From Actinomycetota bacterium (GTDB lineage Bacteria; Actinomycetota; UBA4738; JBJMLN01): a DNA stretch of 64,000 nucleotides. The notes under the pieces are model-generated. The model ran no database searches. It was given only the letters and a program-made list of their open reading frames with translations, and had not been told where the DNA came from. The stretch lies in the NCBI GenBank assembly GCA_045805285.1, contig JBJMLN010000135.1:5656-69655 (forward strand). The letters run 5' to 3'. Shown here piece after piece: positions 6,961 through 63,810 of this stretch. Position 1 is the stretch's first letter; every line of letters starts with the position of its first letter. Made by a program: the position numbers and the translations under genes.

Positions 6961-7063
6961 TTCCCTACCTCCTGCTCGAACGGTGAGGTCATTTTCATGA
7001 CGCGGTCGTCCCGGTGTCTGTGTTGGCCGTCACGAGCCCGGTGTGCTCTTCGTCACGCCGTGG

Positions 7064-7079: not shown

Positions 7080-7157
7080 CCCGGAACGTCCCCAGCGGGC
7101 GATCCCTCGCGGCCACGGTTGAGGCTCGCCCGCGGTCTGGCGCATCATCCTCGAAGG

Positions 7158-33433: not shown

Positions 33434-33602
33434 CGTTGCCTCCTCCTGTGTGCGCGGCGCTGTTCGCCGCCGAGGACCGAAACCTATCCCTCAAGGAGCG
33501 ACGTTCGCCAGTCCCCCGCGGACGCGACAGCGGGGCACGGCGGACGCGCCCGACGCTCCGGAAACTTGTTCCGCGAGGCGGAACCGGCATAGCATCGGCC
33601 TC

Positions 33603-34385
33603 GTGGCCCGGGTGGAGACTCCGCCGATCGAGAGCGTTGACCGCGCCCTACGGCTCCTTCAGGAGCTGGGACGGCACGGTTCCGGAGCGATGTTGGAGGA
33701 GCTCGCGGACGCGACCGGTCTTCCGAAGAGCTCCGCGCATCGCACGCTCGCAGCGCTCCGGGGGAGAGGCTTCGCGTTCCAGCAGGAGGACGGCCGGTAC
33801 CTCGCGGGCTCGGAGCTCCTCCGCGTCGCCTTCGACTTCTACGACCGCGTAGACGTGCGAGTGATGCTCCAGCCGCTGCTGCTGCGCCTCCGCGACGACC
33901 TCAACGAGACCGTGCACCTCGGCGTGCTGGAGGGCGCCGACGTGGTGTATCTCGACAAGCTGGAGTCGCGCCACCCGCTTCGGCTCACCTCCACGATCGG
34001 CGGGCGGAACCCGGCGCACTGCACCGCGGTGGGCAAGGCGATGCTCGCGTGGACCTACCCGAGCGACGCGGAGCTCCGCGCGTGGATCGCGCGTTCTCGG
34101 CCGCTCGTTCGCCGCACGCCCTCCTCGATCACCGATCCGCCGGCGCTCGCAAAGGAGATGGCGAGCATCCGTGCGGACGGCTTCGCCCGCGACATGGAGG
34201 AGAGCGAGGTCGGCGTCCGCTGCATCGCGGCGCCCGTCTTCGTCGGAACGTCGCGGCCGCGCGCGGCGGTTTCGATCTCGGCGCCGCGGGACCGGATGTC
34301 CTCCGTCCGGATCCGGGAGGTCGCGCCGCTCCTCATGCGCGGCGCCGCCGATTCCTCCGGGGCGAACGGAGATGCTGCGCGCTGA
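33603..34385 (+). CDS. IclR-family transcriptional regulator.
   Basis: The N-terminal HTH (SVDRALRLLQELGRHGSGAMLEELADATGLPKSSAHRTL) and the C-terminal effector domain match IclR. GTG start chosen; the first GTG is at 33603 and a second lies at 33612. Confidence 0.8.
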   Translation: MARVETPPIESVDRALRLLQELGRHGSGAMLEELADATGLPKSSAHRTLAALRGRGFAFQQEDGRYLAGSELLRVAFDFYDRVDVRVMLQPLLLRLRDDLNETVHLGVLEGADVVYLDKLESRHPLRLTSTIGGRNPAHCTAVGKAMLAWTYPSDAELRAWIARSRPLVRRTPSSITDPPALAKEMASIRADGFARDMEESEVGVRCIAAPVFVGTSRPRAAVSISAPRDRMSSVRIREVAPLLMRGAADSSGANGDAAR

Positions 34386-41248: not shown

Positions 41249-42364
41249 ATGGCGCTCGTGAGGCTGGAGCACGTCACGAAGCGGTTCTCCTCCGACGCGG
41301 TGGCTCTCGACGACCTCTCACTGGAGGTACAGGACGGGGAGTTCCTGATCCTCGTCGGCCCCTCCGGCTGCGGAAAGACGACGGCGCTCCGGATCGTCGC
41401 GGGACTCGAGAAGCCGACGTCGGGGAGGATCTCGATCGGCGAGCGCGTCGTGAATGACGTCTCTCCGCGGGACCGCGACATCGCGATGGTGTTCCAGAAC
41501 TACGCGCTCTATCCGCACATGACGGTGTATCGAAACCTCGCGTTCGGCCTCAAGGAGCGCCGCACGCCGAAGCAGGAGATCGACCGCCGCGTCCGCGAGG
41601 TGAGCTCGATCCTGGGCCTGGACGCGTTGTTGAAGCGGCGGCCGGCGCAGCTCTCCGGTGGGCAGCGGCAGCGGGTCGCGATGGGCCGCGCGCTGGTGCG
41701 CGAGCCGAAGGCGTTCCTGATGGACGAACCGCTCTCGAATCTCGACGCGAAGCTCCGCGTGCAGATGCGGGCGGAGCTGAAGCGGATCCACCATCGTCTC
41801 GGCATCACCACGATCTACGTGACGCACGACCAGGTGGAGGCGATGACGCTCGGCGACCGCATCGTCGTGATGTCGGCGGGGGAGGTCCAGCAGATCGGAC
41901 GACCGCAGGAGGTCTACCGGCAGCCGGCGAACGTGTTCGTCGCCGGGTTCATCGGGTCGCCCCCGATGAATCTCCTGCGCGGGTCGGCGCGCGACGGCGA
42001 GGTGCAGGCGGGGGATCTCCGCTTCTCGCGGAACGGCGTTCCCGACGGCGACGTCGTCGTGGGCGTCCGGCCCGAGGCGCTCACCATGGCGAACGACGGG
42101 CTTGCCTCCTTCGACTTCACCGTCGACGTCGTCGAGCCGCTCGGAGACGAAGCGGTGATCCACGGCACGACCGCGGGATCCGTCGTGGAGAGCGGCGCCG
42201 AGGAGATGGACGAGCTCCCGCTCCTCGCCGCAGGTTCCCGCGCGCCGGTCGTGGCGCGTTTCCAGCCCGAGGATGAGCCGGCGCCGGGCGACACGCTCCG
42301 GCTCGGTCTCCCTGCCGAGCGGATCATGCTGTTCGACGCGCGGAGCGGGGCCGCGATCTCGTGA
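41249..42364 (+). CDS. ABC sugar ATP-binding protein (MalK/MsiK-like).
   Basis: GPSGCGKTT, LSGGQRQRVAMGRAL, FLMDEPLSNLD. Confidence 0.9.
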   Translation: MALVRLEHVTKRFSSDAVALDDLSLEVQDGEFLILVGPSGCGKTTALRIVAGLEKPTSGRISIGERVVNDVSPRDRDIAMVFQNYALYPHMTVYRNLAFGLKERRTPKQEIDRRVREVSSILGLDALLKRRPAQLSGGQRQRVAMGRALVREPKAFLMDEPLSNLDAKLRVQMRAELKRIHHRLGITTIYVTHDQVEAMTLGDRIVVMSAGEVQQIGRPQEVYRQPANVFVAGFIGSPPMNLLRGSARDGEVQAGDLRFSRNGVPDGDVVVGVRPEALTMANDGLASFDFTVDVVEPLGDEAVIHGTTAGSVVESGAEEMDELPLLAAGSRAPVVARFQPEDEPAPGDTLRLGLPAERIMLFDARSGAAIS

Positions 42365-43695
42365 TGCTCGAGAAGCCACGGATCGTGGTCGTCGGTGCGG
42401 GCGGCTGGGTGTTTCCGATGGAGCTGACGCGGGACATCCTCTCGTTCCCGGCGCTCGCGTCCTCGACGCTCGTCTACTACGACATCGACATCGCAGCGTC
42501 GGAGCGAACGGCGGCGTCGGCGCGCGAGTTGATCGGGGTGGCCGGCGCCGACATGGCGCTGGAGATCGCTCCGACTCTCGCGGAGGCTTTGGCCGGTGCC
42601 GACTTCGTCATCACGGTGTTCCAGGTCGGCGGCCTCGAGGCGTACGCGATCGACGTGGAGATCCCGCGCGAGTACGGCGTCGACCAGACGGTCGGGGACA
42701 CGCTGGGGCCGGGCGGGTGCTTCCGGGGGTTGCGGAGCGTCGCGGCGCTCCGCGAGGTCGCGGAGACGATGCTGGAGATCTGTCCGGACGCGCTGCTGTT
42801 GAACTACGCGAACCCGATGTCGGTGAACTGCTGGGCGACGGATCTCCTCGGCGTCCGGGTCGTCGGGCTCTGTCACAGCGTGCAGGGAACCTCGGAACTG
42901 CTGGCGCACGAGCTCGGCGTTCCGTACGAGGACGTCACGTTCGACTGCGCGGGGGTGAACCACACAGCGTGGTTCACGACGTTCCGTCGCGGAGACGAGG
43001 ACCTGATCCCGCGGATCCGCGAGGTGATGAAGGCGCGGTACATCGACGGGACGATGCCGCTCCTGCCGCGCTCGGACGATCCGTACGAGAGCGTGGAGAA
43101 GGTGCGCACCGCGTTGATGCTGCTCACCGGCTATTTCCACACGGAGTCGAGCCATCACGCGAGCGAGTACTGGGCATGGTTCCGCAAGACGCCGGAGCTC
43201 GTGCACAAGTACCTCGACCGGGAGTGGAACTACCTCGAAGTCTCGCGGTCGACCGACGCGAGGGGCTGGAACTCCTCACTGGTGGAGGCGGCGCGACGCG
43301 AGGGAGTGCGCCACGGCGGAGAGTTCGCCGCGCCGATCATGGACAGCGTCATCACCGGTGTTCCGCGCGTGGTCTACGGCAACGTGAGGAACGATGGCCT
43401 GATCGAGAACCTCCCGTTCGACGCGTGCGTGGAGGTGGCGTGCGCGGTGGATCGCAACGGCGCGCGGCCGGTGCGGTACGGGTCGTTGCCATCGGCGTGC
43501 GCGGCGCTGAACGACGTGCAGATCAACGTGCAGCGGCTGACGGTCGAGGCGGCGATGGAGGGCGACCGGTCGCTCGTGCGTGCGGCGGTCGCGCTGGATC
43601 CGCTGACGAGCGCGGTCTGCACGCTGCCTCAGATCTCCGAGATGGTCGAGCGGATGCTGGAGGCGGAGGCGCAGTGGCTTCCGCAGTTTTCATAG
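42361..43695 (+). CDS. Glycoside hydrolase family 4 (NAD+/Mn2+-dependent alpha-glucosidase / alpha-galactosidase).
   Basis: PRIVVVGAGG..., LLNYANPMSVNCWAT, and the GLCHSV catalytic Cys-His region. Confidence 0.85.
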   Translation: MMLEKPRIVVVGAGGWVFPMELTRDILSFPALASSTLVYYDIDIAASERTAASARELIGVAGADMALEIAPTLAEALAGADFVITVFQVGGLEAYAIDVEIPREYGVDQTVGDTLGPGGCFRGLRSVAALREVAETMLEICPDALLLNYANPMSVNCWATDLLGVRVVGLCHSVQGTSELLAHELGVPYEDVTFDCAGVNHTAWFTTFRRGDEDLIPRIREVMKARYIDGTMPLLPRSDDPYESVEKVRTALMLLTGYFHTESSHHASEYWAWFRKTPELVHKYLDREWNYLEVSRSTDARGWNSSLVEAARREGVRHGGEFAAPIMDSVITGVPRVVYGNVRNDGLIENLPFDACVEVACAVDRNGARPVRYGSLPSACAALNDVQINVQRLTVEAAMEGDRSLVRAAVALDPLTSAVCTLPQISEMVERMLEAEAQWLPQFS

Positions 43696-43758
43696 CGAGC
43701 CGCTCCGTAGCTGCGCGGCGTGCCTGCGTGCCGTGCCGCGCCTGCGTGCCACGCCGGA

Positions 43759-43803
43759 GCACTGTCCACTATTTGGACTCGCGTTTCACATGTTGGACAG
43801 TCC
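43759..43803. repeat. Inverted pair of a ~17-bp motif (gcACTGTCCACTATTTGgac ... tCACATGTTGGACAGTcc) in the convergent intergenic region between the GH4 and SIS genes.
   Basis: Seen directly. One arm matches 16 of 17 positions of the motif copy at 47140-47158. Confidence 0.5.
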
Positions 43804-43829: not shown

Positions 43830-44708
43830 TCAGGAAAGAACGACCGAGCGCGTGAGGTTCCGCGGCTTGTCCGGGTCGAGCCCTCGAGCCTCCGCCAGCG
43901 CCACCGCCGTCCGCTGCGCGAGGACCAGATGCGCCATCGGGTCGATGCCGGGCTCGTTGATGACGGTCGCACCGGTGTTGTGGATCTGATCGAGGAGCGA
44001 GCGTTCGACCTCTCCGAACGCCCAGACGACGGTCCGGTCGGTCGCGACGGAGATCGGGCCGTGTCGGTACTCCATCGCCGGGTAGGCCTCCGCCCACGCG
44101 CCGGTCGCCTCACGGATCTTCAAGCCGGCCTCGCTCGCGATCGCTGCGCGCCAACCCGTTCCGAGGAAGACGAACTGTTCGAACGCGCCCGGATCGAACA
44201 GCAGCGGCGCCGTGACCATCCGCTCCGCGTCGGCGATCGCGGCCTCGAGCTGCTCGCCGAGATGGGCGCGGAACAGCGCGAGCGCGCTCGTGGCGAAACG
44301 GGTCTGCACGACCGACTGCTCGTCGGCGAAGCCGAGGACGACGGTCCTGGACGCCTCCTCCACGATGGGCGTCCGGTCCACCGCGGTCACCGCGAGGGTC
44401 GGCGTGCCCTCGATCCCCTCGAGAGCGCGCACCACCTCCGTCGTCGTTCCCGATCTGGAGATCGCGACGATCAGATCATAGTTGCGGCCGCTCGGGAACT
44501 CCGAAGCGGGGAAGGCGTCGGACTCTCCGTCGCCGGAGGACTCCCGCAGCGCAGCGATCGCCTGGCTCATGTAGAGCGACGTTCCGCAGCCGATGAAGGC
44601 GACGCGAGCGCCGAACGCCGGGAGCTTCTCGACCTCGCGGTCGGCGGCCTCGACGGCGAGGCGCCAGGCGTTCGGCTGGTCGGCGATCTCCTCTTCGATA
44701 TAGCTCAT
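43830..44708 (-). CDS. SIS-domain sugar-phosphate isomerase / deaminase-like protein (AgaS/GlmS isomerase-domain type).
   Basis: FIGCGTSLYMSQAIA, VVAISRSGTTTE. Confidence 0.7.
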   Translation of the reverse strand: MSYIEEEIADQPNAWRLAVEAADREVEKLPAFGARVAFIGCGTSLYMSQAIAALRESSGDGESDAFPASEFPSGRNYDLIVAISRSGTTTEVVRALEGIEGTPTLAVTAVDRTPIVEEASRTVVLGFADEQSVVQTRFATSALALFRAHLGEQLEAAIADAERMVTAPLLFDPGAFEQFVFLGTGWRAAIASEAGLKIREATGAWAEAYPAMEYRHGPISVATDRTVVWAFGEVERSLLDQIHNTGATVINEPGIDPMAHLVLAQRTAVALAEARGLDPDKPRNLTRSVVLS

Positions 44709-44735: not shown

Positions 44736-46034
44736 TCAGCGAGGGCGGCGGATGCCGGTCGGCAGGAGGTTTCCGTGCGCCTCGATCAGCTCGTCGCACA
44801 TCTCCACGATCTGGGAAACGGTGAGCGTCGCGGCGGCGTTCGGGTCGAGCATCGCGGCCTGGTAGACGTGGTCGCGTGACTCCTCGAGGGCGGCGCGCAG
44901 CGTGAGCTCCACGACGTTCAGGAACGTGCGGTTCAGCGCCGTGAGCTGCGGCGGCATCGCGCCGACCGCCTGCGGATGGATGCCCGTCTCGCCGATCTCG
45001 CAGGGGACCTCCACGCAACACGCGTCGGGCAATCCCTCGATCAGGCCGTCGTTGCGGACGTTGCAGTAGACCTCCCGCTCCGTCCCGGTCTCGATGGAGT
45101 GGATCACCTCCGACGCGAGCTCGCTCGTCGGCTCCACGCTGATCGCGCCGCCGGCCGCCAGCTCCTTCTTGATCTCCTCGTACTCGTCGAGGTTCTCGTC
45201 GCTCCGGCGGATGTACTCGTCGACCGGGATCCGGAAGCGCTCGATCTGTTCGTCGCTCTTCATGAACCAGGGCACGTACTCCGCCGAGTGCTCGCTCGAC
45301 TCTGTCGGGAAGTAACCGAAGCGGCGGAAGATCTCCACCCGCACGCGGCGCTGGAGGTCGGGGTCGTTCTCCACGATGCGGCGCAGCATCGGATAGAGGT
45401 CCTCGCCGCCGAGGGAGAACGTCAGCACGAACGCCTGGTGGTTGAACCCCGCGGTGACGAAGGTGAGGTCCTCTTCCCGCTCGTCGACGAGCGAGGCGAG
45501 GAAGTGGTGGGTATCCCGCACGGAATGGCAGAGACCGACGACCTTCCGATGCGGTGTCGCCTCGTACACCGCCCACGGCAGCATCGCCATCGGGTTGGAG
45601 TAATTCAGCAGCCACGCGTCGGGACAGAGCTCGGCCATGTCGTTGCCGATGCCGACGAGGACCGGGATCGTGCGGAGCCCGCGGAAGATGCCGCCGACGC
45701 CGATCGTGTCGGCGATCGTCTGGCGGAGACCGAACCGTTTCGGGATCTCGAAGTCCTTGAGCGTCGCGTCGTAGCCGCCGACCTGGATCTCGTTGACGAC
45801 GTAGTCGGCGCCCTCCACCGCGGGCCGGCGTTCGAGGTGCGCTTCCACGTCGACGACGCGGCCGACGACCTCCGCCGTCGCGTGCGCCATCGCCTCCGCC
45901 GTCTCCAGGCGCTCGGGGCTCACGTCGTGCAGCGCGATCGTCAGCCGCTCCAGGTCGGGGAACGTCAGCAGGTCCGCGAGGACGTTCCGCGTGAACTCCA
46001 CGCTGCCGGCGCCGATGAACGCGATCCGAGGCAC
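44736..46034 (-). CDS. Second glycoside hydrolase family 4 enzyme. Start is uncertain; a GTG at 46034 is chosen by homology to the RIAFIGAGS N-terminus.
   Basis: LLNYSNPMAMLPWAVYE, GLCHSV and C-terminal domain motifs parallel to the first GH4. Confidence 0.75.
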   Translation of the reverse strand: MPRIAFIGAGSVEFTRNVLADLLTFPDLERLTIALHDVSPERLETAEAMAHATAEVVGRVVDVEAHLERRPAVEGADYVVNEIQVGGYDATLKDFEIPKRFGLRQTIADTIGVGGIFRGLRTIPVLVGIGNDMAELCPDAWLLNYSNPMAMLPWAVYEATPHRKVVGLCHSVRDTHHFLASLVDEREEDLTFVTAGFNHQAFVLTFSLGGEDLYPMLRRIVENDPDLQRRVRVEIFRRFGYFPTESSEHSAEYVPWFMKSDEQIERFRIPVDEYIRRSDENLDEYEEIKKELAAGGAISVEPTSELASEVIHSIETGTEREVYCNVRNDGLIEGLPDACCVEVPCEIGETGIHPQAVGAMPPQLTALNRTFLNVVELTLRAALEESRDHVYQAAMLDPNAAATLTVSQIVEMCDELIEAHGNLLPTGIRRPR

Positions 46035-46134: not shown

Positions 46135-46368
46135 GTGGTCAGCGCGTACATCCTCATCCAGGCGGAGGTCGGGAAGGCCACACAGGTCACGAACGAGCTC
46201 AAGAGCATCAAGGGGATCGTCCAGGTCGACGGCGTCACCGGGCCCTACGACGTGATCGCGCGCGCGGAGGCGAACGACCTCGACGACCTCGCGAAGTCGG
46301 TCGTGATGCGTCTCCAGAGCGTGGAGGGCGTCACGCGGACGCTCACCTGTCCGGTCCTTCAGCTCTAG
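46135..46368 (+). CDS. Stand-alone Lrp/AsnC C-terminal (RAM) ligand-binding domain protein of 77 aa, with no HTH.
   Basis: GTG start preceded by GAGGGAGG. VVSAYILIQAEVGKATQVTNELKSIKGIVQVDGVTGPYDVIARAEANDLDDLAKSVV. Confidence 0.65.
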   Translation: MVSAYILIQAEVGKATQVTNELKSIKGIVQVDGVTGPYDVIARAEANDLDDLAKSVVMRLQSVEGVTRTLTCPVLQL

Positions 46369-46372
46369 CCCC

Positions 46373-47098
46373 ATGATCACGGTTCGGCCCGACGCGGAGA
46401 TCTCCGACGTCGAGGGCGACTGGTTCCGCGCGCGCTGGCACTTCTCCTTCGACTCCTACTACGACCCGGACTGGGTGCAGTTCGGAACGCTCCGGGTGTT
46501 CAACGACGACCGGTTGATCCCGGGTGCGATCTGGCCGCTCCATCCGCATCGCGACATCGAAGGGCTGACGTACGTCGTCGAGGGGTCCTTCCGCCACGAG
46601 GACGACCACGGAGGAGCGCCGGGGCCGCTTCCGGCCGGCTCGGTGCAGCGGATGACGCTTGGGTCGGGCGCGTGGCACTCGGAGCAGAACGCGTCGGAGA
46701 CCGAACCGATGCGTTTCATCCAGATGTGGATCATGCCGGCGAAGCGCGGCCTGGAGCCCGGTGTCGAGCAGAAGGTGTTCACGACGGAGGACCGCACCGA
46801 CAAGCTGCTCAAGGTCATCTCCGGCGAAGGTGGAGATGCGGTGCTCGTCCATCAGGATGCGAACGTATACGTCTCCCGGATGTCAGCGGGAACGGAGCTG
46901 CCACACGCGTTCGACAGCGATCAAGGCGCGTACCTCTACGTGATCGGCGGATCGCTCGAGCTGAACGGCGAGAAGCTCGAGACCGGCGATGCCGCGAAGG
47001 TCGAGGGCGAGCGCGAGATCCGTTTGCGTGCGGCGGAGCCGACGGAGCCGTCGGAGCTCATCGTGGCGGAGGTCCGTGTGTCGTCGGACCGCACCTAA
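46373..47098 (+). CDS. Pirin-family cupin protein.
   Basis: FRARWHFSFDSYYDP, HPHRDIEGLTYVVEG (metal-binding His), QMWIMP. Confidence 0.85.
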   Translation: MITVRPDAEISDVEGDWFRARWHFSFDSYYDPDWVQFGTLRVFNDDRLIPGAIWPLHPHRDIEGLTYVVEGSFRHEDDHGGAPGPLPAGSVQRMTLGSGAWHSEQNASETEPMRFIQMWIMPAKRGLEPGVEQKVFTTEDRTDKLLKVISGEGGDAVLVHQDANVYVSRMSAGTELPHAFDSDQGAYLYVIGGSLELNGEKLETGDAAKVEGEREIRLRAAEPTEPSELIVAEVRVSSDRT

Positions 47099-47119
47099 AG
47101 GCTTCGGTCGGCGAGGTGT

Positions 47120-47158
47120 CCACATACTGGACACGCGTCTCACATAGTGGACAGTGCT
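47120..47158. repeat. Two direct copies of the same ~17-bp motif (cCACATACTGGACAcgcg, tCACATAGTGGACAGTGc) in the convergent intergenic region between the pirin and GNAT genes.
   Basis: Seen directly. Consensus is cACAT-nn-TGGACAGTGc. Confidence 0.5.
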
Positions 47159-47186
47159 CCGCACGAGGCTCGATTCCGACACTCCG

Positions 47187-47714
47187 TTATCCGAGGGATC
47201 GGCGATACCGGATCTCCTCGAGGACCACCGGAACCGTCGGATGCATCTCCTGCTTGGCCGATCCGTCGGGAAGCAGGCCTGCCGCCTCGTAGAAGCGGCG
47301 AGCGCGCGCATTCCGCTCCAGGACCCAGAGCGTGAGCTCCCTGAAGCCGGTGCTCCGCGCGAACTCGATCGCTGCGGTCATCAACGCGCGACCGACGCCG
47401 GTGCCGGCAACCTCCTCCTCGACGTAGAGGGAGGAGAGCTCTGCGCTGCCGGCGTGGGCGTCCTCGTCGCGCGAAGGCCCCGTCCCGGCGAAGCCGACGA
47501 TCCGTCCGCGGACTTCGGCTACGAGAACGGCCGCCCCCGGAGGGAGCGATCCGAGGATCTCGTTCCAACCCTGCTCTCGACGTTCGACGGAGAGGGAGTC
47601 GAGCACCTCCGGCGGCAAGATGTCGCGGTAGCCCCACCGCCACCCGCGGACGTGGACCTCCGCGATCTGGCGCGCATCCGAGATGCCGGCTCGCCGAATT
47701 GACGGTTCCGTCAC
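47187..47714 (-). CDS. GNAT-family N-acetyltransferase.
   Basis: Acetyl-CoA-binding motif VGRALMTAAIEFAR. Confidence 0.8.
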   Translation of the reverse strand: MTEPSIRRAGISDARQIAEVHVRGWRWGYRDILPPEVLDSLSVERREQGWNEILGSLPPGAAVLVAEVRGRIVGFAGTGPSRDEDAHAGSAELSSLYVEEEVAGTGVGRALMTAAIEFARSTGFRELTLWVLERNARARRFYEAAGLLPDGSAKQEMHPTVPVVLEEIRYRRSLG

Positions 47715-49411: not shown

Positions 49412-49865
49412 CGCGTTCTCCTGAACGATCGTCCGGGCGGTGGAGTCTAGTCGGGCGAGTCTCGACGTCGCCCGCGTGGGTTCATCCGTCCACCTGTGTC
49501 TCAAGCATCCGGGAGGCAACGTCGATGCTCTCCGTGTCTCTCTCACGGGCTGATGAGGAGAGCGGCGAGATGGTGGGTTCCGGCGCGTTGATCATCGGAG
49601 GACTCCTCCCGCTGCTTCCTGCGAGCGGCTTTCTCTTCGGCGCGGAGGTGACGATCGTTCCGGTGCGAGACCCTGAGAGGCGTGCGCGCATACAGCGGGC
49701 CTCGTCTGTTGCGGGACGGGTCATTCTGGCCCTGGCTGTCCTACTTCTCTTGGTTGGCGGAGTCGGCCTCATCGTGACCGCCGTGATGTGACTGCGCAGG
49801 ACTGCGAGCCCGAACGATAACGCTCCACGCGAAGCCCGGTGACGCTGGTCGCCATCCCGGCGAAA

Positions 49866-50630
49866 ATGCTCGACGTGGAAGAGGTGGAGGTCGTCGTCGC
49901 CCATCGCGAGCGGGTGACCCTGCGCGTCGGCGACGTCTTCCTGAAGATCGACACTGACCAGGCGCGCACGGACCGCGAGGTCGAGGCGATGGGCCTTGCG
50001 CCGATCCCGACTCCGGAGGTCCTCTGGCGGAAGCCGCCCGTGCTCGCACTCTCGGCCCTCCGCGGAACGGCACTCGGCCGCCTCGGTGAGCGCTCGAACG
50101 CGTCCGCGGAGGCTTGGGCCGCTGCCGGCGCCGCCGCACGGATGTTGCACGATGCGCCGCTTCCGCCATGGCCAGGCGAAAGCATCGACGAGATCGCATC
50201 GCAACTCGAGAGGGAATGCGACTGGCTCGTCACGAACGATGTCCTTCCGACCGAGATGGTCACGCGCAACCGCCGGATCGCTGAGACCGCGCTCCAACCG
50301 TGGACGCCAGTATTTGCGCACGGCGACCTGCAGATCACCCACGTGTTCGCCGACGGTGACGAGATCACCGGAGTTATCGACTGGTCAGAAGCGGCCCAAG
50401 GCGATGCCCTCTACGACCTCGCCACGTTGACGCTCGGACACGAGGAGCGCCTTGCCGACGTTGTCGCCGGCTACGGCACCGACGTCGACCTCGACGTCAT
50501 CCGGGCGTGGTGGTCGCTTCGAAGCCTGCTTGCGGCGCGCTGGCTGATCGACCACGGCTTCGATCCGTCCTCGCCAGGTTGCGAGTTCGACGTGTTGAGA
50601 TCTTCGTCAAGCTGGACGACTGAAGCCTGA
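49866..50630 (+). CDS. Aminoglycoside / antibiotic phosphotransferase (APH) family protein.
   Basis: HGDLQITHVF (Brenner HGD) and GVIDWSEAAQGDALYDLA (D-x-x-E). Confidence 0.75.
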   Translation: MLDVEEVEVVVAHRERVTLRVGDVFLKIDTDQARTDREVEAMGLAPIPTPEVLWRKPPVLALSALRGTALGRLGERSNASAEAWAAAGAAARMLHDAPLPPWPGESIDEIASQLERECDWLVTNDVLPTEMVTRNRRIAETALQPWTPVFAHGDLQITHVFADGDEITGVIDWSEAAQGDALYDLATLTLGHEERLADVVAGYGTDVDLDVIRAWWSLRSLLAARWLIDHGFDPSSPGCEFDVLRSSSSWTTEA

Positions 50631-50632
50631 CC

Positions 50633-51022
50633 TCACGACCAGAACTCGTCCGACGTGTAGGCGTCGCTCGGGTGCAGCCACGACTCGGTGACCTTGCCGT
50701 CCTTGAGGTGGAAGACCTGGACGGTGTTGTCGTGCAGCGTCTTTCCGTTCCGCTCGCCCATCGCGGTGAGGAGCGTCACGGCGTGCTCGTCGTCGGCCAG
50801 GATCGCGTGGATGTCGAGGTGGAACGTCCCGTTCGTCAGCTCCATGTTCTTCTGGAGGTTGCCGAACACCTCGTCCTTGCCCCGGAACGTTCCCGAGAGC
50901 TCGTTGCGTCCGGGGGTGTGCCAGACGACGTCGTCGGAGAAGAACTCGTTCAGCGTTGCCATGTCGCCGGCTGCGAACGCGTCGTAGCCCTTGCGGACGA
51001 GATCCTCGTTGGGATGAGCCAT
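50633..51022 (-). CDS. SnoaL/NTF2-like fold protein.
   Basis: LVRKGYDAFAAGDMATLNEFFSDDVVWHTPG is a typical SnoaL_2 N-terminus. Confidence 0.7.
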   Translation of the reverse strand: MAHPNEDLVRKGYDAFAAGDMATLNEFFSDDVVWHTPGRNELSGTFRGKDEVFGNLQKNMELTNGTFHLDIHAILADDEHAVTLLTAMGERNGKTLHDNTVQVFHLKDGKVTESWLHPSDAYTSDEFWS

Positions 51023-51128
51023 GGTTCCTCCTGACGGTGGCTGGAGTGGCGGGACCGCCATCCTGGGGCCCGACACCTCGCTCGTCAAACGGAGTCACCA
51101 GTCCACGGAGCGGACCTAGAGTGAACCC

Positions 51129-56596: not shown

Positions 56597-57424
56597 ATGG
56601 CCGGAACGCTGCACCTCGTCGGAACGCCGATCGGGAACCTCGGCGACATCAGCCAACGCGCGAAGGAGACGCTCGCGCGCGTCGACGTCGTCGCCGCGGA
56701 GGACACCCGCCGTGCCCGGAAGCTCCTGTCCCATCTCCGCGTCCGAGCGGAGCTCACCACGCTCTTCGAGGGCAACGAGCGTTCGCGAACGGAGACGCTG
56801 CTCGACGCGCTCCGCGCGGGGCGCGACGTCGCCGTGATCTCCGATGCGGGGATGCCGGGACTTTCCGATCCGGGGTACCGACTGGTCCGCGCGTGCGCGG
56901 GCGAGGGGATCGAGGTGCGCGTCGTCCCCGGTCCGTCCGCGGCGATCGCGGCGCTCGTCGTGTCCGGGCTCCCGTCCGACCGCTTCGTCTTCGAGGGCTT
57001 CCTTCCGAAGAAGGAGGGAGAGCGGAGCGCCCGCCTGGAGGCGCTCGCCACCGAACGGAGGACGATCGTGCTGTTCGAATCTCCACGGCGCGTGTCCGCT
57101 ACGCTCGACGCGATCGCGTCGGCCCTCGGGCCGGAGCGGCCGGTGGCGGTCGCCCGGGAGCTCACCAAGGTGCACGAGGAAGTGCTCCGCGGAAACGCCT
57201 CGGAGCTGGCGGAGAACCTCCGCGACCAGGAGCTGCGTGGCGAGGTCGTCCTCGTCGTCGGGGGGGCGACGCGAGGCCCGGCCCCGGAGCTCTCGGAGCT
57301 CGTCGATGAGGCGGCGGAGCTGACCCGCGCCGGCAGTAAGAAGCGCGAGGCCGCCGCCGAGATCGCGCGCCGGCATCACGTCTCTGCCAACTCGATCTAT
57401 CGGGCGCTGCTCGAGGAGCGCTGA
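56597..57424 (+). CDS. rsmI: 16S rRNA (cytidine1402-2'-O)-methyltransferase.
   Basis: LHLVGTPIGNLGDISQRAKETLARVDVVAAEDTRRARKLL. Confidence 0.9.
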   Translation: MAGTLHLVGTPIGNLGDISQRAKETLARVDVVAAEDTRRARKLLSHLRVRAELTTLFEGNERSRTETLLDALRAGRDVAVISDAGMPGLSDPGYRLVRACAGEGIEVRVVPGPSAAIAALVVSGLPSDRFVFEGFLPKKEGERSARLEALATERRTIVLFESPRRVSATLDAIASALGPERPVAVARELTKVHEEVLRGNASELAENLRDQELRGEVVLVVGGATRGPAPELSELVDEAAELTRAGSKKREAAAEIARRHHVSANSIYRALLEER

Positions 57425-58239
57425 TGCGGTTCCCCGAGCCGCCGGATGGGCTCCCTTCGCCTCCGCGGCCGGCAGAGATGCCGCCCCCGCCGAATCCGCT
57501 CGGACCGGGTCTCGGCAGCCCACCTCGATCGCCGTGGTTCCTGCGCGGGGCGTGGCTTCCGGCCGTGCTCGTGGTCGTGCTCGTGGCGGTGGTGGGCGCG
57601 GCGATCGCAGGGCCGCTCGTCGCCTCGAGCGACCACTCGGGCGAGTACTCCTTCCTCCAGCGTCGCGCCGACGGCTCGCCCGTGCGATGGGATCCGTGCG
57701 CGCCGATCCACTTCGTCACGAACCTGAGCGGCGCGCCGCAGAACGAGTTCGCCGACGTGCAGGAGGCCCTCCGCCGCATCACGGGGGCGACCGGCATCCG
57801 GTTCGTCTACGACGGTCCGACCCGCGCGCTTCCGCGCGGCGTTCCGAACGCGAGCGAGGTCGCGACTCCGCCGGGAGAGGATGCGCCGCCGGTGCTGATC
57901 GCGTGGCTCGATAGCGAGGAGTTCATCGACGTCGGCGGAAGGAGCTCGCAGGTCGGTCTCGCCGTCACCTCGACCGAGCCCGACGGCTTCTACTACGACA
58001 CCGGCTTCGTCGCGCTCAACGGCGGACAGGACCTGGTCCCCGGTTTCGGCATCGGGCCGACCTGGGGACCGGTGATCCTCCACGAGCTCGGTCACATCAT
58101 GGGACTCGGGCACACTCCGGCGACCGACGAGCTGATGAACCCGCAGGAGAATCCCGTCGTCACGGGCTTCGGCGACGGCGATCTCGCGGGTTTGCGGATC
58201 CTCGGGCGCCACGGGTCCTGCGCCGCCGCGACTCCCTGA
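57424..58239 (+). CDS. Membrane-anchored zinc metalloprotease with a metzincin HExxHxxGxxH motif.
   Basis: HELGHIMGLGH. The N-terminus is Pro-rich and followed by a transmembrane segment LPAVLVVVLVAVVGAAIAG. Confidence 0.75.
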   Translation: MRFPEPPDGLPSPPRPAEMPPPPNPLGPGLGSPPRSPWFLRGAWLPAVLVVVLVAVVGAAIAGPLVASSDHSGEYSFLQRRADGSPVRWDPCAPIHFVTNLSGAPQNEFADVQEALRRITGATGIRFVYDGPTRALPRGVPNASEVATPPGEDAPPVLIAWLDSEEFIDVGGRSSQVGLAVTSTEPDGFYYDTGFVALNGGQDLVPGFGIGPTWGPVILHELGHIMGLGHTPATDELMNPQENPVVTGFGDGDLAGLRILGRHGSCAAATP

Positions 58240-58291
58240 CGCCGTTCCTGCGTGACGCGGCCGCGAAGCGCCGCCTCGTTAGGATGGTCCG

Positions 58292-59824
58292 ATGGGACGC
58301 GAGACCTTCTATGTGACGTCGGCGATCCCCTACGTCAACGCCGAGCCGCACGTCGGAACCGCCTACGGCCACGTCGCCTGTGACGTCATCGCGCGCTATC
58401 ACCGTCTCCGCGGCGACGACACCTTCTTCCTGACGGGAACCGACGAGCACAGCCAGAACGTCGCCCGCTCAGCCGAGGAGCAGGGCATCACGCCCCAGGA
58501 GTGGGTCGACACGATGGTGCCGAAGTGGAAGGACGTCTGGCGTCGGCTCGACATCTCCTTCGACGACTTCATCAGGACCTCCGAGGAGCGCCACGCCGAG
58601 CGCGTCCAGGCGTTCGTCCAGCGTCTCCACGACCGCGGGGAGGTGTACCTGGGCTTCTACGAGGGCCCGTACTGCGTCTCCTGCGAGGAGTTCAAGGTCG
58701 ACAAGGAGCTCGTGGACGGCAAGTGTCCGATCCACCTGATCCCGGTGGAGCAGCTCCGGGAGGAGAACTGGTTCTTCCCGCTCTCGGCCTACCGGGACAA
58801 GCTCCTCGCTCTCTACGAGGACCACCCCGAGTTCGTGGAGCCGGAGACGCGGCGGAACGAGGTCGTCTCGTTCGTGGGAGGCGGGCTCCAGGACCTCTCG
58901 ATCTCGCGATCCGGCTCGAGCTGGGGGATCCCGCTGCCGTGGGACTCCGCCCACGTCATCTACGTCTGGGTCGACGCGCTCCTGAACTACATCACCGCCC
59001 CGGGGTTCGGCACGGACGACCCCCTGTTCGACCGCGTGTGGCCGGCCGACGTCCAGGTGATCGGAAAGGACATCACGCGCTTCCACGCCGTCATCTGGCC
59101 GGCGCTGCTGATGGCGGCCGGGCTGGAGGTGCCGAAGACGATCCTCGCCCACGGCTTCCTCTATCTGTCGGGGGAGAAGATGTCGAAGAGCCGCGGGAAC
59201 GTCGTCCATCCGCTGGAGCTCGTCGACCGCTTCGGCGTCGACTCCTACCGGTACTTCTTCATGCGGGAGGTGCCGTTCGGACAGGACGGGAACTACTCCC
59301 TCGAGGCGATCCTCGACCGGCACAACGCCGATCTCGCCAACGGCCTCGGGAACCTGGCGAGCCGAGTCCTCGCGATGCTCGGCTCGAACTACGACGGCGT
59401 CGTGCCGGACGCGAACGACCCCTCGGAGGCGGGCGCGCTTCCGGGCCTGGTCGCCGACGTGGTGGAGCGTCTCGACGCCGCGATGGAGACGTTCTCGCTC
59501 ACCGCCGCCATCGCCGCCGTATGGGAGGTCGTGTCCGAGGCGAACCGATACCTCGTCGAGCGGGCTCCGTGGAGGCTCGCCAAGGAGGGGGGCCACGACG
59601 AGGAGCTCGCGGCGGTTCTCTACGCGTCCGCGGAGACGTTGCGGATCCTCGCGGTCCTCATCCAGCCCGTCATGCCGTCCGCCGCCGACCGGCTGTGGAA
59701 GCAGCTCGGGATCGCGGAGCCACTCGCCGCCCAGCGGCTGCCGGATGCCGCCCGTTGGGGCGGGCTCGAGGCCGGCACGAAGACGAGCAAGGGCGAGCCG
59801 CTGTTCCCGCGCCTCGACGAGTGA
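58292..59824 (+). CDS. metG: Methionine--tRNA ligase.
   Basis: HVGTAYGH (HIGH), KMSKS, and the zinc knuckle CVSCEEF...GKCPIH. Confidence 0.95.
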   Translation: MGRETFYVTSAIPYVNAEPHVGTAYGHVACDVIARYHRLRGDDTFFLTGTDEHSQNVARSAEEQGITPQEWVDTMVPKWKDVWRRLDISFDDFIRTSEERHAERVQAFVQRLHDRGEVYLGFYEGPYCVSCEEFKVDKELVDGKCPIHLIPVEQLREENWFFPLSAYRDKLLALYEDHPEFVEPETRRNEVVSFVGGGLQDLSISRSGSSWGIPLPWDSAHVIYVWVDALLNYITAPGFGTDDPLFDRVWPADVQVIGKDITRFHAVIWPALLMAAGLEVPKTILAHGFLYLSGEKMSKSRGNVVHPLELVDRFGVDSYRYFFMREVPFGQDGNYSLEAILDRHNADLANGLGNLASRVLAMLGSNYDGVVPDANDPSEAGALPGLVADVVERLDAAMETFSLTAAIAAVWEVVSEANRYLVERAPWRLAKEGGHDEELAAVLYASAETLRILAVLIQPVMPSAADRLWKQLGIAEPLAAQRLPDAARWGGLEAGTKTSKGEPLFPRLDE

Positions 59825-59903
59825 GTGAGACTCCGGCGCGCATGCGCCGCTCCCGTCGCGCCGAGCTTCGAGCGCCGGTCGAGCTTCGAGCAGGATCGCG
59901 CCC

Positions 59904-60698
59904 TTGATGTCGGACAACCCTCGAGAGGCCGTCGAGAGAGGCGTCGTCGACACCCACTGTCACCTCTTCCTCCTCTCCGAAGAGCCCGCTGCGGCGGTCG
60001 AGGCGGCGAACGCCGCGGGCGTCGATTCCCTCGTCTGCGTCGGCATCGACCCCGAGTCGAGCCGTCGCTCCGCCGAGCTTGCGGAGACGTTCCGCGGCGT
60101 CTTCGCCACTGCGGGGATGCATCCGCACACCGCGTCGGAGCTCGACGACGAGGCGGGAGCGTTGCTCGAGGAGCTCCTCTCCAGCCCCCATGTCGTCGGG
60201 GTGGGAGAGACGGGTCTCGACCAGTACCGGAAGCTTTCGCCGCCGGAGGACCAGGAGCGCGCGCTGCGTCTCCACGTGGCGCTGTCGCGGGAACACGCCA
60301 AACCGCTCGTCGTCCACGTCCGCGAGGCATGGCCGCGGATCCTTGAAGTGCTGGATGAGGAACGAGCCGAACAGGTCGTGATCCACTGCTTCTCCGGCGA
60401 CGCGGAGATCGCGCGGGAGTGCGTCGCCCGCGGATACTTCCTGTCGTTCGCCGGGAACCTGACGTACCCCGCGAACAAGCCGATGCGCGAAGCCGTTGCG
60501 TCAGCTCCGATGGATCGACTCCTGGTCGAGACCGACAGCCCGTTCCTCTCTCCACAATCACGTCGCGGTCGAGACAACTCGCCGGCCTTCGTCGTCGCGG
60601 TCGTCGAGGAGATCGCCGCACTCCGCGGCGACACGGTGGAAAACGTCGCGGCCGCCGTGTCGGAGAACGCCGGCCGCGCGTTCCCCGGGCTCCGATAG
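59904..60698 (+). CDS. tatD: TatD-family metal-dependent hydrolase.
   Basis: VDTHCHL, GETGLDQY. Confidence 0.9.
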   Translation: MMSDNPREAVERGVVDTHCHLFLLSEEPAAAVEAANAAGVDSLVCVGIDPESSRRSAELAETFRGVFATAGMHPHTASELDDEAGALLEELLSSPHVVGVGETGLDQYRKLSPPEDQERALRLHVALSREHAKPLVVHVREAWPRILEVLDEERAEQVVIHCFSGDAEIARECVARGYFLSFAGNLTYPANKPMREAVASAPMDRLLVETDSPFLSPQSRRGRDNSPAFVVAVVEEIAALRGDTVENVAAAVSENAGRAFPGLR

Positions 60699-60862
60699 CG
60701 TCTGTGAGCGCCGGTCCGAGGGCTTCCACCGGGGCGAACGGGCGTTCCCGCTCAAGATTGATGTACAGGTTGAGGCTTTGGTAGGGTCCGCCTCGTGAGC
60801 TGGAGGCTTCGGCCCGGCCAACGCCGCTTCCCCCCGGAGCCTTCCTTCGATGAGGAGGAAGG

Positions 60863-62011
60863 TTGGCGGTATCAGCCATGCGGGTGCGCAGACTGCGCGT
60901 CCGGCGCGCGATCGCGCGCGCCTCGCTCGCCGGCATGCTTCTCGCCGCGGGCGTCCTCTACATCGCGCTTCAGAAGAACGTCACCTTGGTGGTCGACGGG
61001 CAGGCTCGCCCCGTCGCCACCTTCGACTCCAACGTGGGGGAGCTCCTCCACGGCATCTCGCTTGAGCCCGGAGACCACGTCATGCCCTCGCCGTCGACGT
61101 CGCTGTCGGACGGCATGGTCGTCGTGGTCTCCCGCGAGACGCCGGCCGCCGCGGCGGCATCGAGCTCTCCGACCGGTGGGGTCTGGGCGGTGGGGGGGGT
61201 GAGCGGGGCGCTCCGCGAGGAGCTCCTTGCTCCAGCCGAGACCGCGCTCTCCGCGGACGCGTCCACTGGGCCGTCCACGATCGTCGAGGAACGAGTCGTC
61301 GTGATGGGGAAGGTTCGCGACGTGCTCACCAACGCCTCGACGGTCGGGACACTCCTCTCGGCCATGGGGATCGAGCCCGACGGCCGCGACCGCGTCCTCC
61401 CATCGCCCAGCACCCCGCTCTCCAAGGCGGCGACGGTTCGCTACGTCGACGTCGACCAGCGCACCCGGAAGGTGACCTCCCCGATCCCGTTCACCACGTA
61501 CACGACGTACTCCTCGTCGATGGCTCCGGGATCCGTCCACGTCGTCCGCGACGGCAAGCCCGGTCGCTTCGAGCGGACGTACCGCGTGCGGACGATCGAC
61601 GGCAAGGTCGTCAGGAAGCATCAGATCGACCAGCACGTCGTCGAGACTCCGGTCGCTGAGCACCGCGTCGTCGGAGGAACCGAACCGTCCGCGCCGGCGC
61701 CGGTATCGCCGCCGGAGTCCTCGCAGCCCGCCCCCGAGGAGCCGAGCGGAACCGCGAGCGGCGACGGCGTGGAGGTCGGTGACGCCTCCTGGTACAGCTT
61801 CGCGCCGGGCTCGGGCTTCACGGCGGCGCATCCGTGGCTTCCGTTCGGGACGCACGTGACCGTCACGAATCTCACGAACGGTCGGAGCGTCACCGTGGTA
61901 ATCAACGACCGTGGACCGTTCGGCGGGCGAAGCATCGACCTCTCCGAGGAGGCGTTCGCCCAGATCGCGCCGCTCAGCCAGGGCGTCGCGCACGTCCGCC
62001 TCACCTGGTAG
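60863..62011 (+). CDS. RpfB/YabE-like cell-wall protein. It has an N-terminal transmembrane segment, DUF348 repeats, a G5 domain, and a C-terminal RlpA-like / 3D double-psi beta-barrel in place of an Rpf lysozyme-like domain.
   Basis: [23 protein letters not shown] (DUF348) and the C-terminal [58 protein letters not shown] (DPBB). Confidence 0.75.
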
Positions 62012-62846
62012 CGGCGGCGTCGGCCGGCTCGGCGCTCGGTCTCTCCGCGAGCTGGCGGAGCGCCATGGAATCTCCCCGAAGGCGGCCCTCGGTCAGCACT
62101 TCCTGATCGATCCGAACCTCGCCGATGCGATCGCCGCTGCCTCAGGGGCGGCTCCCGGGGTCAGCGTCGTGGAGATCGGAGCCGGTCTCGGCTCGCTGAC
62201 CCGCGCGCTCGCGGAACGGCGAGCGTCCGTCCTCGCGCTGGAGTTCGACCGTGCGCTGATCCCGGCGTTGACGGAGGCGGTCGGAGACCTCCCGGATGTC
62301 GCGATCCGTCAGGCGGACGCGACGTCGCTGGCATGGCAGTCGCTGCTCGGGAATGCGAGCTGGCGATGCGCGGCCAACCTTCCGTACAACGTCGGGGTGC
62401 CGATCCTGCTGCGGGCGCTGGAGGAGGCGCCCGCGATCGAGGAGTACGTGGTGATGGTGCAGCGAGAGGTCGCGGAGAGGTTGGTGGCCGGCCCCGGGGA
62501 CGACTCGTACGGAACGACGTCGCTCCGCGTCGCGTACCGAGCCGATGCGGAGATCCTCCGAACCGTTCCGCCGTCGGTGTTCTGGCCGCGGCCACACGTC
62601 GGCTCGGCGGTGGTGCGGCTGAAGCCGCATCCGCCCCGTGTGGCGACGGATCCCGGCGTGCTGTTCCGCGTGATCGACGTCTCCTTCGCCGAGCGACGCA
62701 AGACGATGCGGAGCGCGGCGCGGCGACTCGCCGTTCCAGCGGATCGCGTCGCCGACACGCTTCGCTCCGCGGAGATCGATCCGGACGCGCGGGCGGAGTC
62801 CCTGTCGCTCGATCGCTTCGCCGCGCTCGCGGAGGCGTTGGAGTGA
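61911..62846 (+). CDS. rsmA: 16S rRNA (adenine1518/1519-N6)-dimethyltransferase. The only in-frame canonical start is the ATG at 61911, which overlaps the upstream gene by 101 nt. The conserved region begins at ~62040.
   Basis: [30 protein letters not shown]. Confidence 0.8.
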
Positions 62847-63751
62847 GCGCCGTGACGCGGCGGGCGTACGGAAAGATCAACGTGTTCCTGCGCGTCGTCG
62901 GCAAGCGGCGCGACGGCTATCACGAGATCGAGAGCCTCGTCGTTCCGATCTCCCTCGCCGATCGCGTTTCGGCTCGTCTCGCACCGGCGCTCCGCCTGAA
63001 CGTCTCGGGCAACACGACGACGGGAGTTCCGCAGGGGCCGGCGAACCTCGCGTTGCTGGCCGCGTTGGCTCTCGCGGAGGCATGCGAGCCGTCGGAGGGC
63101 GCGGAGATCTCGATCACGAAGCACGTCCCGGCGGCGGGCGGTCTCGGCGGAGGGAGCTCCGACGCCGCCGCGGTTCTCCACGCGCTGAGCGAACTGTGGG
63201 AGTGCGAGCTGCGCCCTTCCGCTCTCTCGCGGATCGGAGCGGCGCTCGGCTCGGACGTCCCTGCTGCCCTGCGCGCGGCGCCAGTGGTGATGCGGGGGCG
63301 AGGGGAGACGCTTCGCCCAGCCAAGATCGGAGGCACGCAGTGGTGGACGCTCGTCCCGTTCGATTTCCCCGTCCGGTCCCCGGACGCGTACCGGTGGTGG
63401 GACGAGGACCGTGAGCGGAGCGGGCCATCTCCGACTGCGTTACTCCGCGCCGCCGCCGCCGGAAAGCTCCGGCGCCTCGGAGAGCTGCTGTTCAACGATC
63501 TCGAGGGCCCCGTCCTCCGGCGCCATCCGGAGGTCGCAGAGGTGAAGGAGCGCCTCCTGTCCGCGGGCGCCCTCGGGGCGGTCATGAGCGGAAGCGGCCC
63601 GACCGTCGTCGGTCTCGCGGAGGACCGATCGCACGCCCAGCGCCTCGCGCGGAGGTTCGAGGGAGCGAAGGTCGTCTCAGCGCCTCCCGACCGAATGACG
63701 GGCGTCGCCCTACCCGCGCGGGATAATCGAAAGCGGTCCGGGGTCGTCTAA
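62843..63751 (+). CDS. ispE: 4-(cytidine 5'-diphospho)-2-C-methyl-D-erythritol kinase.
   Basis: YGKINVFLRVVGKRRDGYHEIESL and the GHMP motif PAAGGLGGGSSDAAA. GTGA overlap with rsmA. Confidence 0.9.
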   Translation: MSAVTRRAYGKINVFLRVVGKRRDGYHEIESLVVPISLADRVSARLAPALRLNVSGNTTTGVPQGPANLALLAALALAEACEPSEGAEISITKHVPAAGGLGGGSSDAAAVLHALSELWECELRPSALSRIGAALGSDVPAALRAAPVVMRGRGETLRPAKIGGTQWWTLVPFDFPVRSPDAYRWWDEDRERSGPSPTALLRAAAAGKLRRLGELLFNDLEGPVLRRHPEVAEVKERLLSAGALGAVMSGSGPTVVGLAEDRSHAQRLARRFEGAKVVSAPPDRMTGVALPARDNRKRSGVV

Positions 63752-63810
63752 CGGCAAGACGGGGGCCTTTGGAGCCTCAGATGGAGGTTCGATCCCTCCC
63801 CCCGGAGCCA
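63737..63810 (+). tRNA. tRNA-Gln, anticodon TTG, with encoded CCA.
   Basis: Manual fold: acceptor TCCGGGG/CCCCGGA. Anticodon stem GGGGC/GCCTC with loop CTTTGGA. T arm GGAGG-TTCGATC-CCTCC. Discriminator G followed by CCA. Confidence 0.85.

Follow-up and report, generated by a model that had tools for sequence, protein, structure and literature searches.

The window, the whole 64-kb stretch of DNA analysed here, comes from an uncultured Actinomycetota MAG. A gene for an IclR regulator (33603–34385, plus strand; Pfam) stands upstream of a catabolic/ABC sugar operon that runs on the plus strand and ends at 43695 with a GH4 glycosidase gene (42361–43695, plus strand; Pfam). Facing this terminal gene is a SIS-domain (FrlB-like) gene (43830–44708, minus strand; assigned from Pfam and the names of homologs), which is the last gene of an operon headed by a second GH4 gene (44736 to about 46034, minus strand; Pfam). 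Beyond it, a stand-alone RAM (AsnC ligand-binding) gene (about 46135–46368, plus strand; Pfam) precedes pirin (46373–47098, plus strand; Pfam), and pirin in turn faces a GNAT acetyltransferase gene (47187–47714, minus strand; Pfam) that is followed by a DAO gene on the minus strand.

Two gaps between convergent genes result, one of 134 bp between GH4 and SIS and one of 88 bp between pirin and GNAT, and each contains a copy of the element studied here, S1 in the first and S2 in the second. Between S1 and S2 lies a pair of small operons that diverge from each other. From the end of the GH4 stop codon it is 61 nt to the S1 block and 67 nt to its TGTCCAC core, and the SIS stop codon begins 26 nt past S1. 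At the other junction, the end of the pirin stop codon is separated by 14 nt from the S2 block and by 18 nt from the core, and the GNAT stop codon begins 28 nt past S2. The first-pass annotation had placed a repeat in these two gaps, and the Pfam assignments, GH4(+)/SIS(−) and pirin(+)/GNAT(−), confirm that both are gaps between convergent genes. Its description of the repeat as non-coding, confined to convergent 3′ gaps and accounted for by no gene, also holds. Most other convergent gaps in the window measure 0–6 bp, the exceptions being one with a tRNA-Ala gene and a few larger ones where the gene calls are uncertain; all these sizes rest on approximate, GC3-based calls.

Several other features of the region deserve mention. 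S1 and the SIS gene stand between the two GH4 paralogs (42361–43695 and 44736–46034), which are oppositely oriented and linked by an inverted repeat (43128–43189 and 45257–45318, 71% complementary). A GC-rich tandem repeat, GCGTGCCT, with a period of 8–18, lies directly upstream of S1 (43711–43756) and is not conserved in the orthologous gaps. Near the start of the window, in a GC-rich region, there is a near-perfect tandem repeat of 15 nt, CCCGAGCCGGAGCTT (861–977). A perfect 7-3-7 palindrome, GTTCCGC-GAG-GCGGAAC (33568–33584), precedes the GTG start of the IclR gene (33603) by about 20 bp, where the sugar-catabolic cluster begins. It is probably the IclR-family regulator's own operator, with the architecture of the S1 and S2 dyads described below and a different sequence.

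Genes for a TP_methylase (rsmI-like), metG, tatD, a G5/DPBB protein, an rRNA adenine dimethylase (ksgA-like), a GHMP kinase (ispE-like) and tRNA-Gln follow one another from 56597 to 63810, an order that resembles the mycobacterial metS-tatD-rpfB-ksgA-ispE region and gives the window the look of ordinary chromosome. A scan of about 70 window ORFs against Pfam found no transposase, integrase or RAYT domain. Rfam returned no match at E≤1 between 40 and 50 kb, and over the whole window at gathering score it returned two tRNAs only. A switch of GC skew at the element was considered and dismissed, as the skew merely tracks gene orientation.

One composite element in two copies

When the two sites are aligned, S1 and S2 prove to be copies of one composite element of 42–45 bp, collinear, in the same orientation and ungapped. 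Between the aligned sequences of S1, CTGTCCACTATTTGGACTCGCGTTTCACATGTTGGACAGTCC (43762–43803), and of S2, GTGTCCACATACTGGACACGCGTCTCACATAGTGGACAGTGC (47116–47157), 32 of 42 positions are identical with 0 gaps, and a repeat comparison gives the two as a direct pair of 45 nt with 78% identity. Pattern and repeat analysis, together with orthologs in four metagenomic loci (L081, L082, L084 and L091), delimits S1 at 43757–43803 as the composite quasi-palindrome AGCAC-TGTCCACTATTTGGACT-CGC-GTTTCACATGTTGGACA-GTCC. S2, its paralog in the same orientation, occupies 47113–47158 and reads GAGG-TGTCCACATACTGGACA-CGC-GTCTCACATAGTGGACA-GTGCT; it has an ortholog in L092. Neither element nor its dyads are assigned to a strand. 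What the two share can be written as TGTCCAC-N4-TGGAC-N-CGCGT-N-TCACAT-NN-TGGACAGT.

Each element is built of two 17-bp dyads, with the consensus GTCCAC-N3-GTGGAC and with centres 20 bp apart. The first dyad, P1, is a good palindrome (GTCCAC-N3-sTGGAC) and the second, P2, a half-degenerate one (nTyTCAC-ATr-kTGGAC). In S1, P1 (43763–43779; TGTCCAC-TAT-TTGGACT) matches on both strands and supplies the half-sites H1 and H2, while P2 (43783–43799; GTTTCAC-ATG-TTGGACA), at a centre distance of 20 bp, supplies a degenerate H3 and a strong H4. In S2, P1 (47117–47133; TGTCCAC-ATA-CTGGACA) matches on both strands with 0 mismatches, and P2 follows at 47137–47153 (GTCTCAC-ATA-GTGGACA). Because the centres of P1 and P2 are 20 bp apart, the 37-bp core that comprises both dyads, and which is wholly intergenic, is also a single long quasi-palindrome. 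The element, with a GC content of 47.5% in a genome of 68%, forms an AT-rich island. When the seven copies found here and in relatives are aligned, 20 of the 51 columns are invariant and the dyad spacers (columns 15–18 and 37–38) are variable. A small ORF running across the element was rejected, the only open frame being interrupted by a stop codon in L081.

The element had been noticed earlier as a shorter motif with four instances, two at each site, and these are where they were reported: the pattern CACATNNTGGACAG matches at 43762–43775 (minus strand, 1 mismatch) and 43787–43800 (plus strand, 0 mismatches) at the first site, and at 47121–47134 (plus strand, 1 mismatch) and 47141–47154 (plus strand, 0 mismatches) at the second. 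The 16/17 identity given for two of the instances is correct and extends to 20/21, the arms 43755–43775 and 47141–47161 being 95% complementary. The distinction drawn between an inverted pair at the first site and a direct pair at the second is nonexistent, as both sites have the same layout. The "reverse" copy is an artefact that arises because the first unit is itself palindromic: TGTCCA-N5-TGGAC matches both strands at both sites.

Whether the motif exceeds chance depends on the length considered. The short pattern alone is weak evidence, barely above chance: 1.9 matches are expected in the window and 5 are found, a count also reached in 3 of 100 shuffles. A weaker match at 30490 is a chance occurrence and not a copy, because it lies inside a rhodanese gene. 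For the full length, the best match between the two intergenic gaps is 32/42, against a maximum of 27 in 400 shuffles. The window as a whole contains 25 direct 42-mer pairs at 31/42 or better; S1/S2 aside, these are repeats within coding sequence, paralogs or GC-rich coding DNA. Conservation of the element at the equivalent junctions of other organisms settles that it is real.

Retention and loss in related lineages

Metagenomic relatives were found through the SIS and pirin proteins, with one DNA pattern match (L084) in addition. Four loci have S1 at the GH4/SIS junction: L081 and L082 (SIS 86% identical to that of the window), L084 (88%) and L091 (82%). It is absent from L085 (SIS 95%), where the gap is 9 bp; from L086 and L087 (90%), where a gap of 15 bp is filled by a small GC hairpin; from L083 (85%), where a GNAT gene is inserted (6556–7095); and from L088, L089 and L090 (78%), where the genes overlap. 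By SIS identity, the window groups with L085, L084 with L086/L087, and L081/L082 with L083, L091 being outside. Within each group one member has S1 and another does not. The split of presence and absence inside each group indicates that S1 is ancestral and has been lost independently at least three times.

For S2, an ortholog is found beyond the 3′ end of the pirin gene of L092 (pirin identity 90%), where it faces DAO, as opposed to GNAT in the window. S2 is absent from L093, which has a 10-bp gap, and from L081/L082, which have a prs gene in its place. Each of the seven copies is found between convergent stop codons, also at junctions where a neighbour has given way to another gene, and the distances from element to stop codon differ among orthologs.

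The seven-copy alignment also bears on the age of the two elements. The S1 copies share S1-specific bases and the S2 copies share S2-specific bases; since these paralog-specific bases are common to orthologs, the paralogy of S1 and S2 predates the lineage splits. S1 is 81–86% identical to its orthologs, the surrounding spacer is unalignable, and the third codon positions of SIS are 63–67% identical. Conservation above that of silent sites, amid scrambled flanks, argues for purifying selection on the element. Within the genome, S1 and S2 agree at 32/42 (76%), less than S1 agrees with its orthologs elsewhere. Paralogs less alike than orthologs are the opposite of what a recently spreading repeat would give, and they speak for no recent spread or homogenisation. 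In sum, S1 and S2 are two old paralogous AT-rich quasi-palindromes of about 45 bp between convergent stop codons.

Both junctions are also places where genes come and go. The S1 junction is a hot spot of gene insertion, with GNAT in L083 and, in the contig P0015, STAS and HATPase anti-sigma-type genes plus small ORFs. Downstream of pirin, prs, GNAT or a sulfatase gene has been gained or lost. In L081 and L082, the ribose-phosphate pyrophosphokinase gene (prs) sits between pirin and GNAT, a place equivalent to 47099–47186 of the window (L081 2820–3829, prs coding 2820–3746). The prs calls are shortened in L096 and L097, and L097 has an in-frame stop where L096 has a sense codon; prs appears to be decaying in both. 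Farther along the window, APH phosphotransferase and SnoaL-like genes (49839–51088) are found between DAO and an Rce1-like gene; they are absent from the syntenic L081 and L088, where DAO and the Rce1-like gene are adjacent.

Other small structures occur in the S1 gap of relatives. In L086 (about 2200–2216) and L087 (about 1489–1505), a compact GC-rich hairpin, GCCGAGG-CC-CTCGGC, extends across both convergent stop codons. L091 has, beside its S1 ortholog, a second, unrelated perfect palindrome with a 15-bp stem, CCCACTCTGTGGGAT-GCC-ATCCCACAGAGTGGG (2028–2060). In L084, an extra partial unit, GCACTGTCCACACTCAGATGGACACC (TGTCCAC and TGGACA with an 8-nt spacer; 324–349), lies about 34 bp downstream of the S1 ortholog.

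Searches farther afield added little. There are only two loci in the 64-kb window, and an HMM built from six copies detected nothing further in about 1.9 Mb of retrieved DNA. The composite pattern had 0 matches in 185,579 species genomes, a collection that does not contain the source lineage. The closest SIS relatives among these species genomes are Thermoleophilia/Solirubrobacterales MAGs at no more than 64% identity, and the motif was absent from their 80 loci. A pattern scan of metagenomes gave one match, which is L084, an S1 ortholog. No copy was seen in a pattern scan of viral contigs, and BLAST found no match among plasmids and phages. A comparison of the element's six-frame peptides with predicted ORFs, which other copies might overlap, scored nothing, and the half-site sequence had no relevant match in the literature.

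These results bear on the proposal, made in the first-pass annotation, that the motif belongs to a family of dispersed, REP/MITE-like repeats. Membership in such a family is not confirmed: only two loci, paralogous to each other, were found, and the window ORFs scanned lack transposase and RAYT genes. A related explanation would have S1 and S2 as a low-copy or decaying selfish palindrome that landed in two permissive convergent gaps and has little or no host function. The form and location of the element are those of an extragenic palindrome in convergent gaps, with a 45-bp unit at two junctions. Its patchy presence, with at least three clean losses among close relatives, fits as well, as do the gain and loss of genes at both junctions and the extra partial unit of L084 and extra palindrome of L091 in the same gap. 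Such an origin nevertheless seems improbable to us. A selfish palindrome would not be expected to be conserved well above the silent-site rate between scrambled flanks, which indicates constraint, nor to be more alike between orthologs than between paralogs of one genome. The absence of a transposase or RAYT gene from the window, of a further copy from the 64 kb, from about 75 kb of close relatives and from the other collections searched, and of a target-site duplication convincing by eye in the flanks weighs in the same direction.

A few more specific kinds of element were considered and set aside. S1 and S2 are not attL and attR or the ends of a mobile 3.3-kb cassette: the cassette genes occur in relatives that have one or neither element, and the window ORFs scanned include no integrase. 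An integron attC site does not fit the RYYYAAC...GTTRRRY core, as GTTGGAC occurs only in window S1 (by chance) and the other copies have GTGGAC; moreover, the genes here are convergent rather than all in one orientation, and the window lacks an integrase. Of parS there is only a GTTTCAC half-site, in S1 alone. The dif, CIRCE, CRP, Rex and NrdR boxes misfit in spacing or in the second half-site, by inspection against their consensus sequences.

A possible RNA hairpin or DNA-binding site

The palindrome can be read as RNA or as DNA. Of 8 tests in which 56-nt windows around the element were folded as RNA, 7 gave a more stable fold than the shuffles did (z −2.2 to −5.9), and the two strands had comparable energies. 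The folding energy of the core ranges from −7 to −23 kcal/mol, again alike on both strands, with AT-rich stems of moderate stability. In the RNAalifold consensus, an internal loop separates an outer stem of 7 bp (TGTCCAC/GTGGACA) from an inner stem of 5 bp, which is capped by a tetraloop. In a closely similar structure specified by hand, 89% of the cells are paired; over all structures tried with the seven sequences the value is 74–89%, and most pairs never vary. The invariant blocks coincide with the stems, and the most variable columns (15–18, 24–26 and 37) with the loops.

Where pairs do vary, pair 21–30 occurs as G-U, G-C and A-U and pair 8–44 as U-A and C-G. The covariation score observed with seven sequences is reached by 52 to 131 of 500 shuffles for two long-hairpin structures, and a structure of two local dyads has none. 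Columns 34–37 do not compensate for the changes in the P1 spacer (columns 15–18), the long stem stays unpaired at its centre in both S2 copies, and four positions (C27, T31, A35 and T36) are unpaired yet invariant. Extension of the stem by complementary flanks was rejected as a general feature; it is seen in window S1 only, and marginally so (p about 0.03–0.05). It should be noted that the RNA hairpin is not separable here from a DNA dyad, because in a palindrome the conserved stems are also the conserved half-sites.

We consider it most likely, at a probability of roughly 0.4, that S1 and S2 are sequence-conserved bidirectional 3′-end hairpins, similar in kind to TRIT and REP (see below). A transcript arriving from either side would form the same two-stem hairpin, in which a variable internal loop connects the outer stem of 7 bp, TGTCCAC/GTGGACA, with the inner stem of 5 bp, TGGAC/G.UxCA, and the apical loop has 4 nt. 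For both incoming transcripts, the hairpin may stall or terminate RNA polymerase or may block 3′-to-5′ exonucleases, and as a result the convergent operons would be kept from reading into each other. The first-pass annotation had raised the possibility of a hairpin or a bidirectional terminator, and part of this stands: because an imperfect hairpin can form on either strand, a bidirectional role at 3′ ends is plausible. A terminator of the U-tract type was not seen: the terminator scan found none at S1 or S2, and on neither strand does a T-run follow the element in any of the seven copies. The U-tract is missing, and the stems are conserved in sequence, and not only in pairing. Some factor probably recognizes the element, as has been proposed for mycobacterial TRIT.

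The hairpin is ranked first because of the exclusive position between convergent stop codons, the equal folding of both strands, the occurrence of substitute hairpins and the precedent of TRIT. As to the substitutes, other hairpins are found at the S1 junction in the absence of the element (L086/L087) or beside it (L091). Counting against the hairpin, close relatives manage without the element, with gaps of 9–15 bp or overlapping genes; significant covariation and a U-tract are lacking, the AT-rich stems are moderate, and some unpaired bases are invariant. The function at the level of RNA that we infer is accordingly best called putative, for an element that is small, lineage-restricted and conserved.

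Second in rank comes a double-stranded DNA operator, in which a dimer of dimers or a tetramer would sit on two adjacent dyads of 15–17 bp and serve as a roadblock or an insulator or control an antisense transcript. We regard it as somewhat unlikely. In its favour are the four half-sites, of which the outer H1 and H4 are strong (TGTCCACT), the variable spacers, and the 20 of 51 columns that are invariant without covariation. Protein binding is also consistent with an AT-rich island in a GC-rich genome and with the 20-bp spacing, which places both dyads on the same face of the helix. The ATA in the P1 spacer of both S2 copies breaks the long hairpin and would be harmless to a dyad-binding protein. 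The hexamer CATnnT (columns 34–39, in which the A, the first T and the last T are invariant) might serve an antisense RNA as a weak −10 box. The palindrome upstream of the IclR gene is likewise of the 7-3-7 type, and the architecture is therefore in use in this genome. All this has to be set against the location: the paralogs and all orthologs are at 3′ ends rather than at promoters, the window's promoter regions are free of the motif, and a search for sigma-70-like promoters detected none at S1 or S2. A candidate binding protein was not found, and the local IclR box, GTTCCGC-GAG-GCGGAAC, differs in sequence. Finally, S1 and S2 have in common their spacers and their asymmetry (CGCGT, TCACAT), which suggests that a 45-bp unit was copied and speaks against two binding sites having evolved independently.

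A further rival involves DnaA. Its high-affinity box in M. tuberculosis and S. coelicolor is TTGTCCACA (PMC4285127), and the element could be viewed as a cluster of DnaA boxes of the TGTCCAC type outside oriC, comparable to DARS, datA or the clusters of B. subtilis. The half-sites have the form nTGTCCACn; S2 of the window contains GTGTCCACA at 47116 (8/9), L091 a perfect TTGTCCACA, and the extra unit of L084 CTGTCCACA. In L082, a G-to-A change creates TATCCAC, a box of the E. coli type. One box opposed to two of the same orientation loosely resembles the DARS core (PMC6868365). We nevertheless hold this reading to be very improbable. Most boxes match at 6–7 of 9 positions, position 9 being usually T rather than A; in the window, one box has 1 mismatch to TTGTCCACA and two have 2. 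As 85 sites in the window have 2 mismatches or fewer to the box, such matches are common. TGTCCAC is not enriched in the window (3 observed, about 5 expected), and avoidance of it elsewhere in the window, which had been considered, is not significant by the same count. The conserved CG, TCACAT and CTAT outside the boxes are left unexplained, the inverted boxes are 1 bp apart instead of 5 bp as in DARS (PMC6868365), and close relatives dispense with the element.

A candidate protein-DNA site can also be stated more broadly: a tetramer or DnaA would occupy four TGTCCAC-type half-sites, and the dedicated site would form a chromosomal roadblock or insulator that separates convergent operons. In this form the proposal is doubtful. 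The "stoperators" of mycobacteriophages provide a comparison for a roadblock or insulator of this sort.

Returning to the bidirectional 3′-end hairpin, its interest lies in the host. Canonical terminators are scarce in high-GC actinobacteria, and the marking of 3′ ends in these organisms is for that reason poorly understood. If the hairpin reading is true, the element would be a second example, besides TRIT, of a 3′-end signal that is sequence-specific and probably factor-dependent. A protein-bound insulator or a DnaA site would be more surprising, the latter amounting to a DARS/datA-like site in a little-studied actinobacterial lineage. Whichever applies, this is a junction element that has long been kept in some lineages and dropped in others.

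Likeness to known systems

Of the systems that recall the element, clusters of DnaA boxes (DARS, datA and those of B. subtilis) are similar in being intergenic and in having three or four TGTCCAC-type boxes, one inverted relative to two others. They differ from it in that the box matches here are weak, the spacing is another one, conserved bases lie outside the boxes, and close relatives have lost the element. The tandem dyad operators of tetrameric regulators (IclR/TetR-type, ARG boxes) come nearer in architecture, with two dyads of about 15–17 bp, about 20 bp between centres and a footprint of about 40 bp. The 3′-end position here, the lack of a cognate regulator among the proteins found and the different local IclR box set them apart.

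A canonical intrinsic terminator, too, is a hairpin downstream of stop codons, and as a palindrome it can serve both strands. The element departs from this model in having no U-tract, in a stem that is AT-rich and not GC-rich, and in the conservation of its sequence across paralogs and species.

The REP/BIME/REPIN elements of proteobacteria occur in tens to hundreds of copies that are homogenised within a genome, and they are tied to a RAYT transposase and a conserved flanking tetranucleotide. Like S1 and S2, they are short imperfect extragenic palindromes (REP, 20–40 nt), common between convergent genes and patchy among relatives; they are able to stabilise the upstream mRNA or to serve as protein-binding sites. 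The present case is different, with two diverged old paralogs that are better conserved between species than within the genome, and no RAYT in the window.

Besides REP-type palindromes, the closest parallel is TRIT, the Tuberculosis Rho-independent terminator motif of Mycobacterium (Gardner et al., 2011; PMC3152330), a palindrome that is conserved in sequence, stands where genes end and is in most cases bidirectional. Its 147 copies per genome occupy a narrow position around −8 relative to the stop codon, which they overlap, and it has been reported only in Mycobacterium (PMC3152330). There are thus clear differences: 147 copies per genome against the two loci known here; a position that overlaps the stop codon against S1 and S2, which start 14–61 nt past the upstream stop codon, end 26–28 nt before the downstream one and overlap neither; and a mycobacterial host against an uncultured Actinomycetota MAG. 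Compared by description rather than by the TRIT consensus, the two nevertheless agree in being actinobacterial palindromes, conserved in both sequence and structure, located at gene ends and mostly bidirectional. Neither follows the canonical U-tract logic, and for TRIT, as for the element described here, a recognizing factor is suspected.
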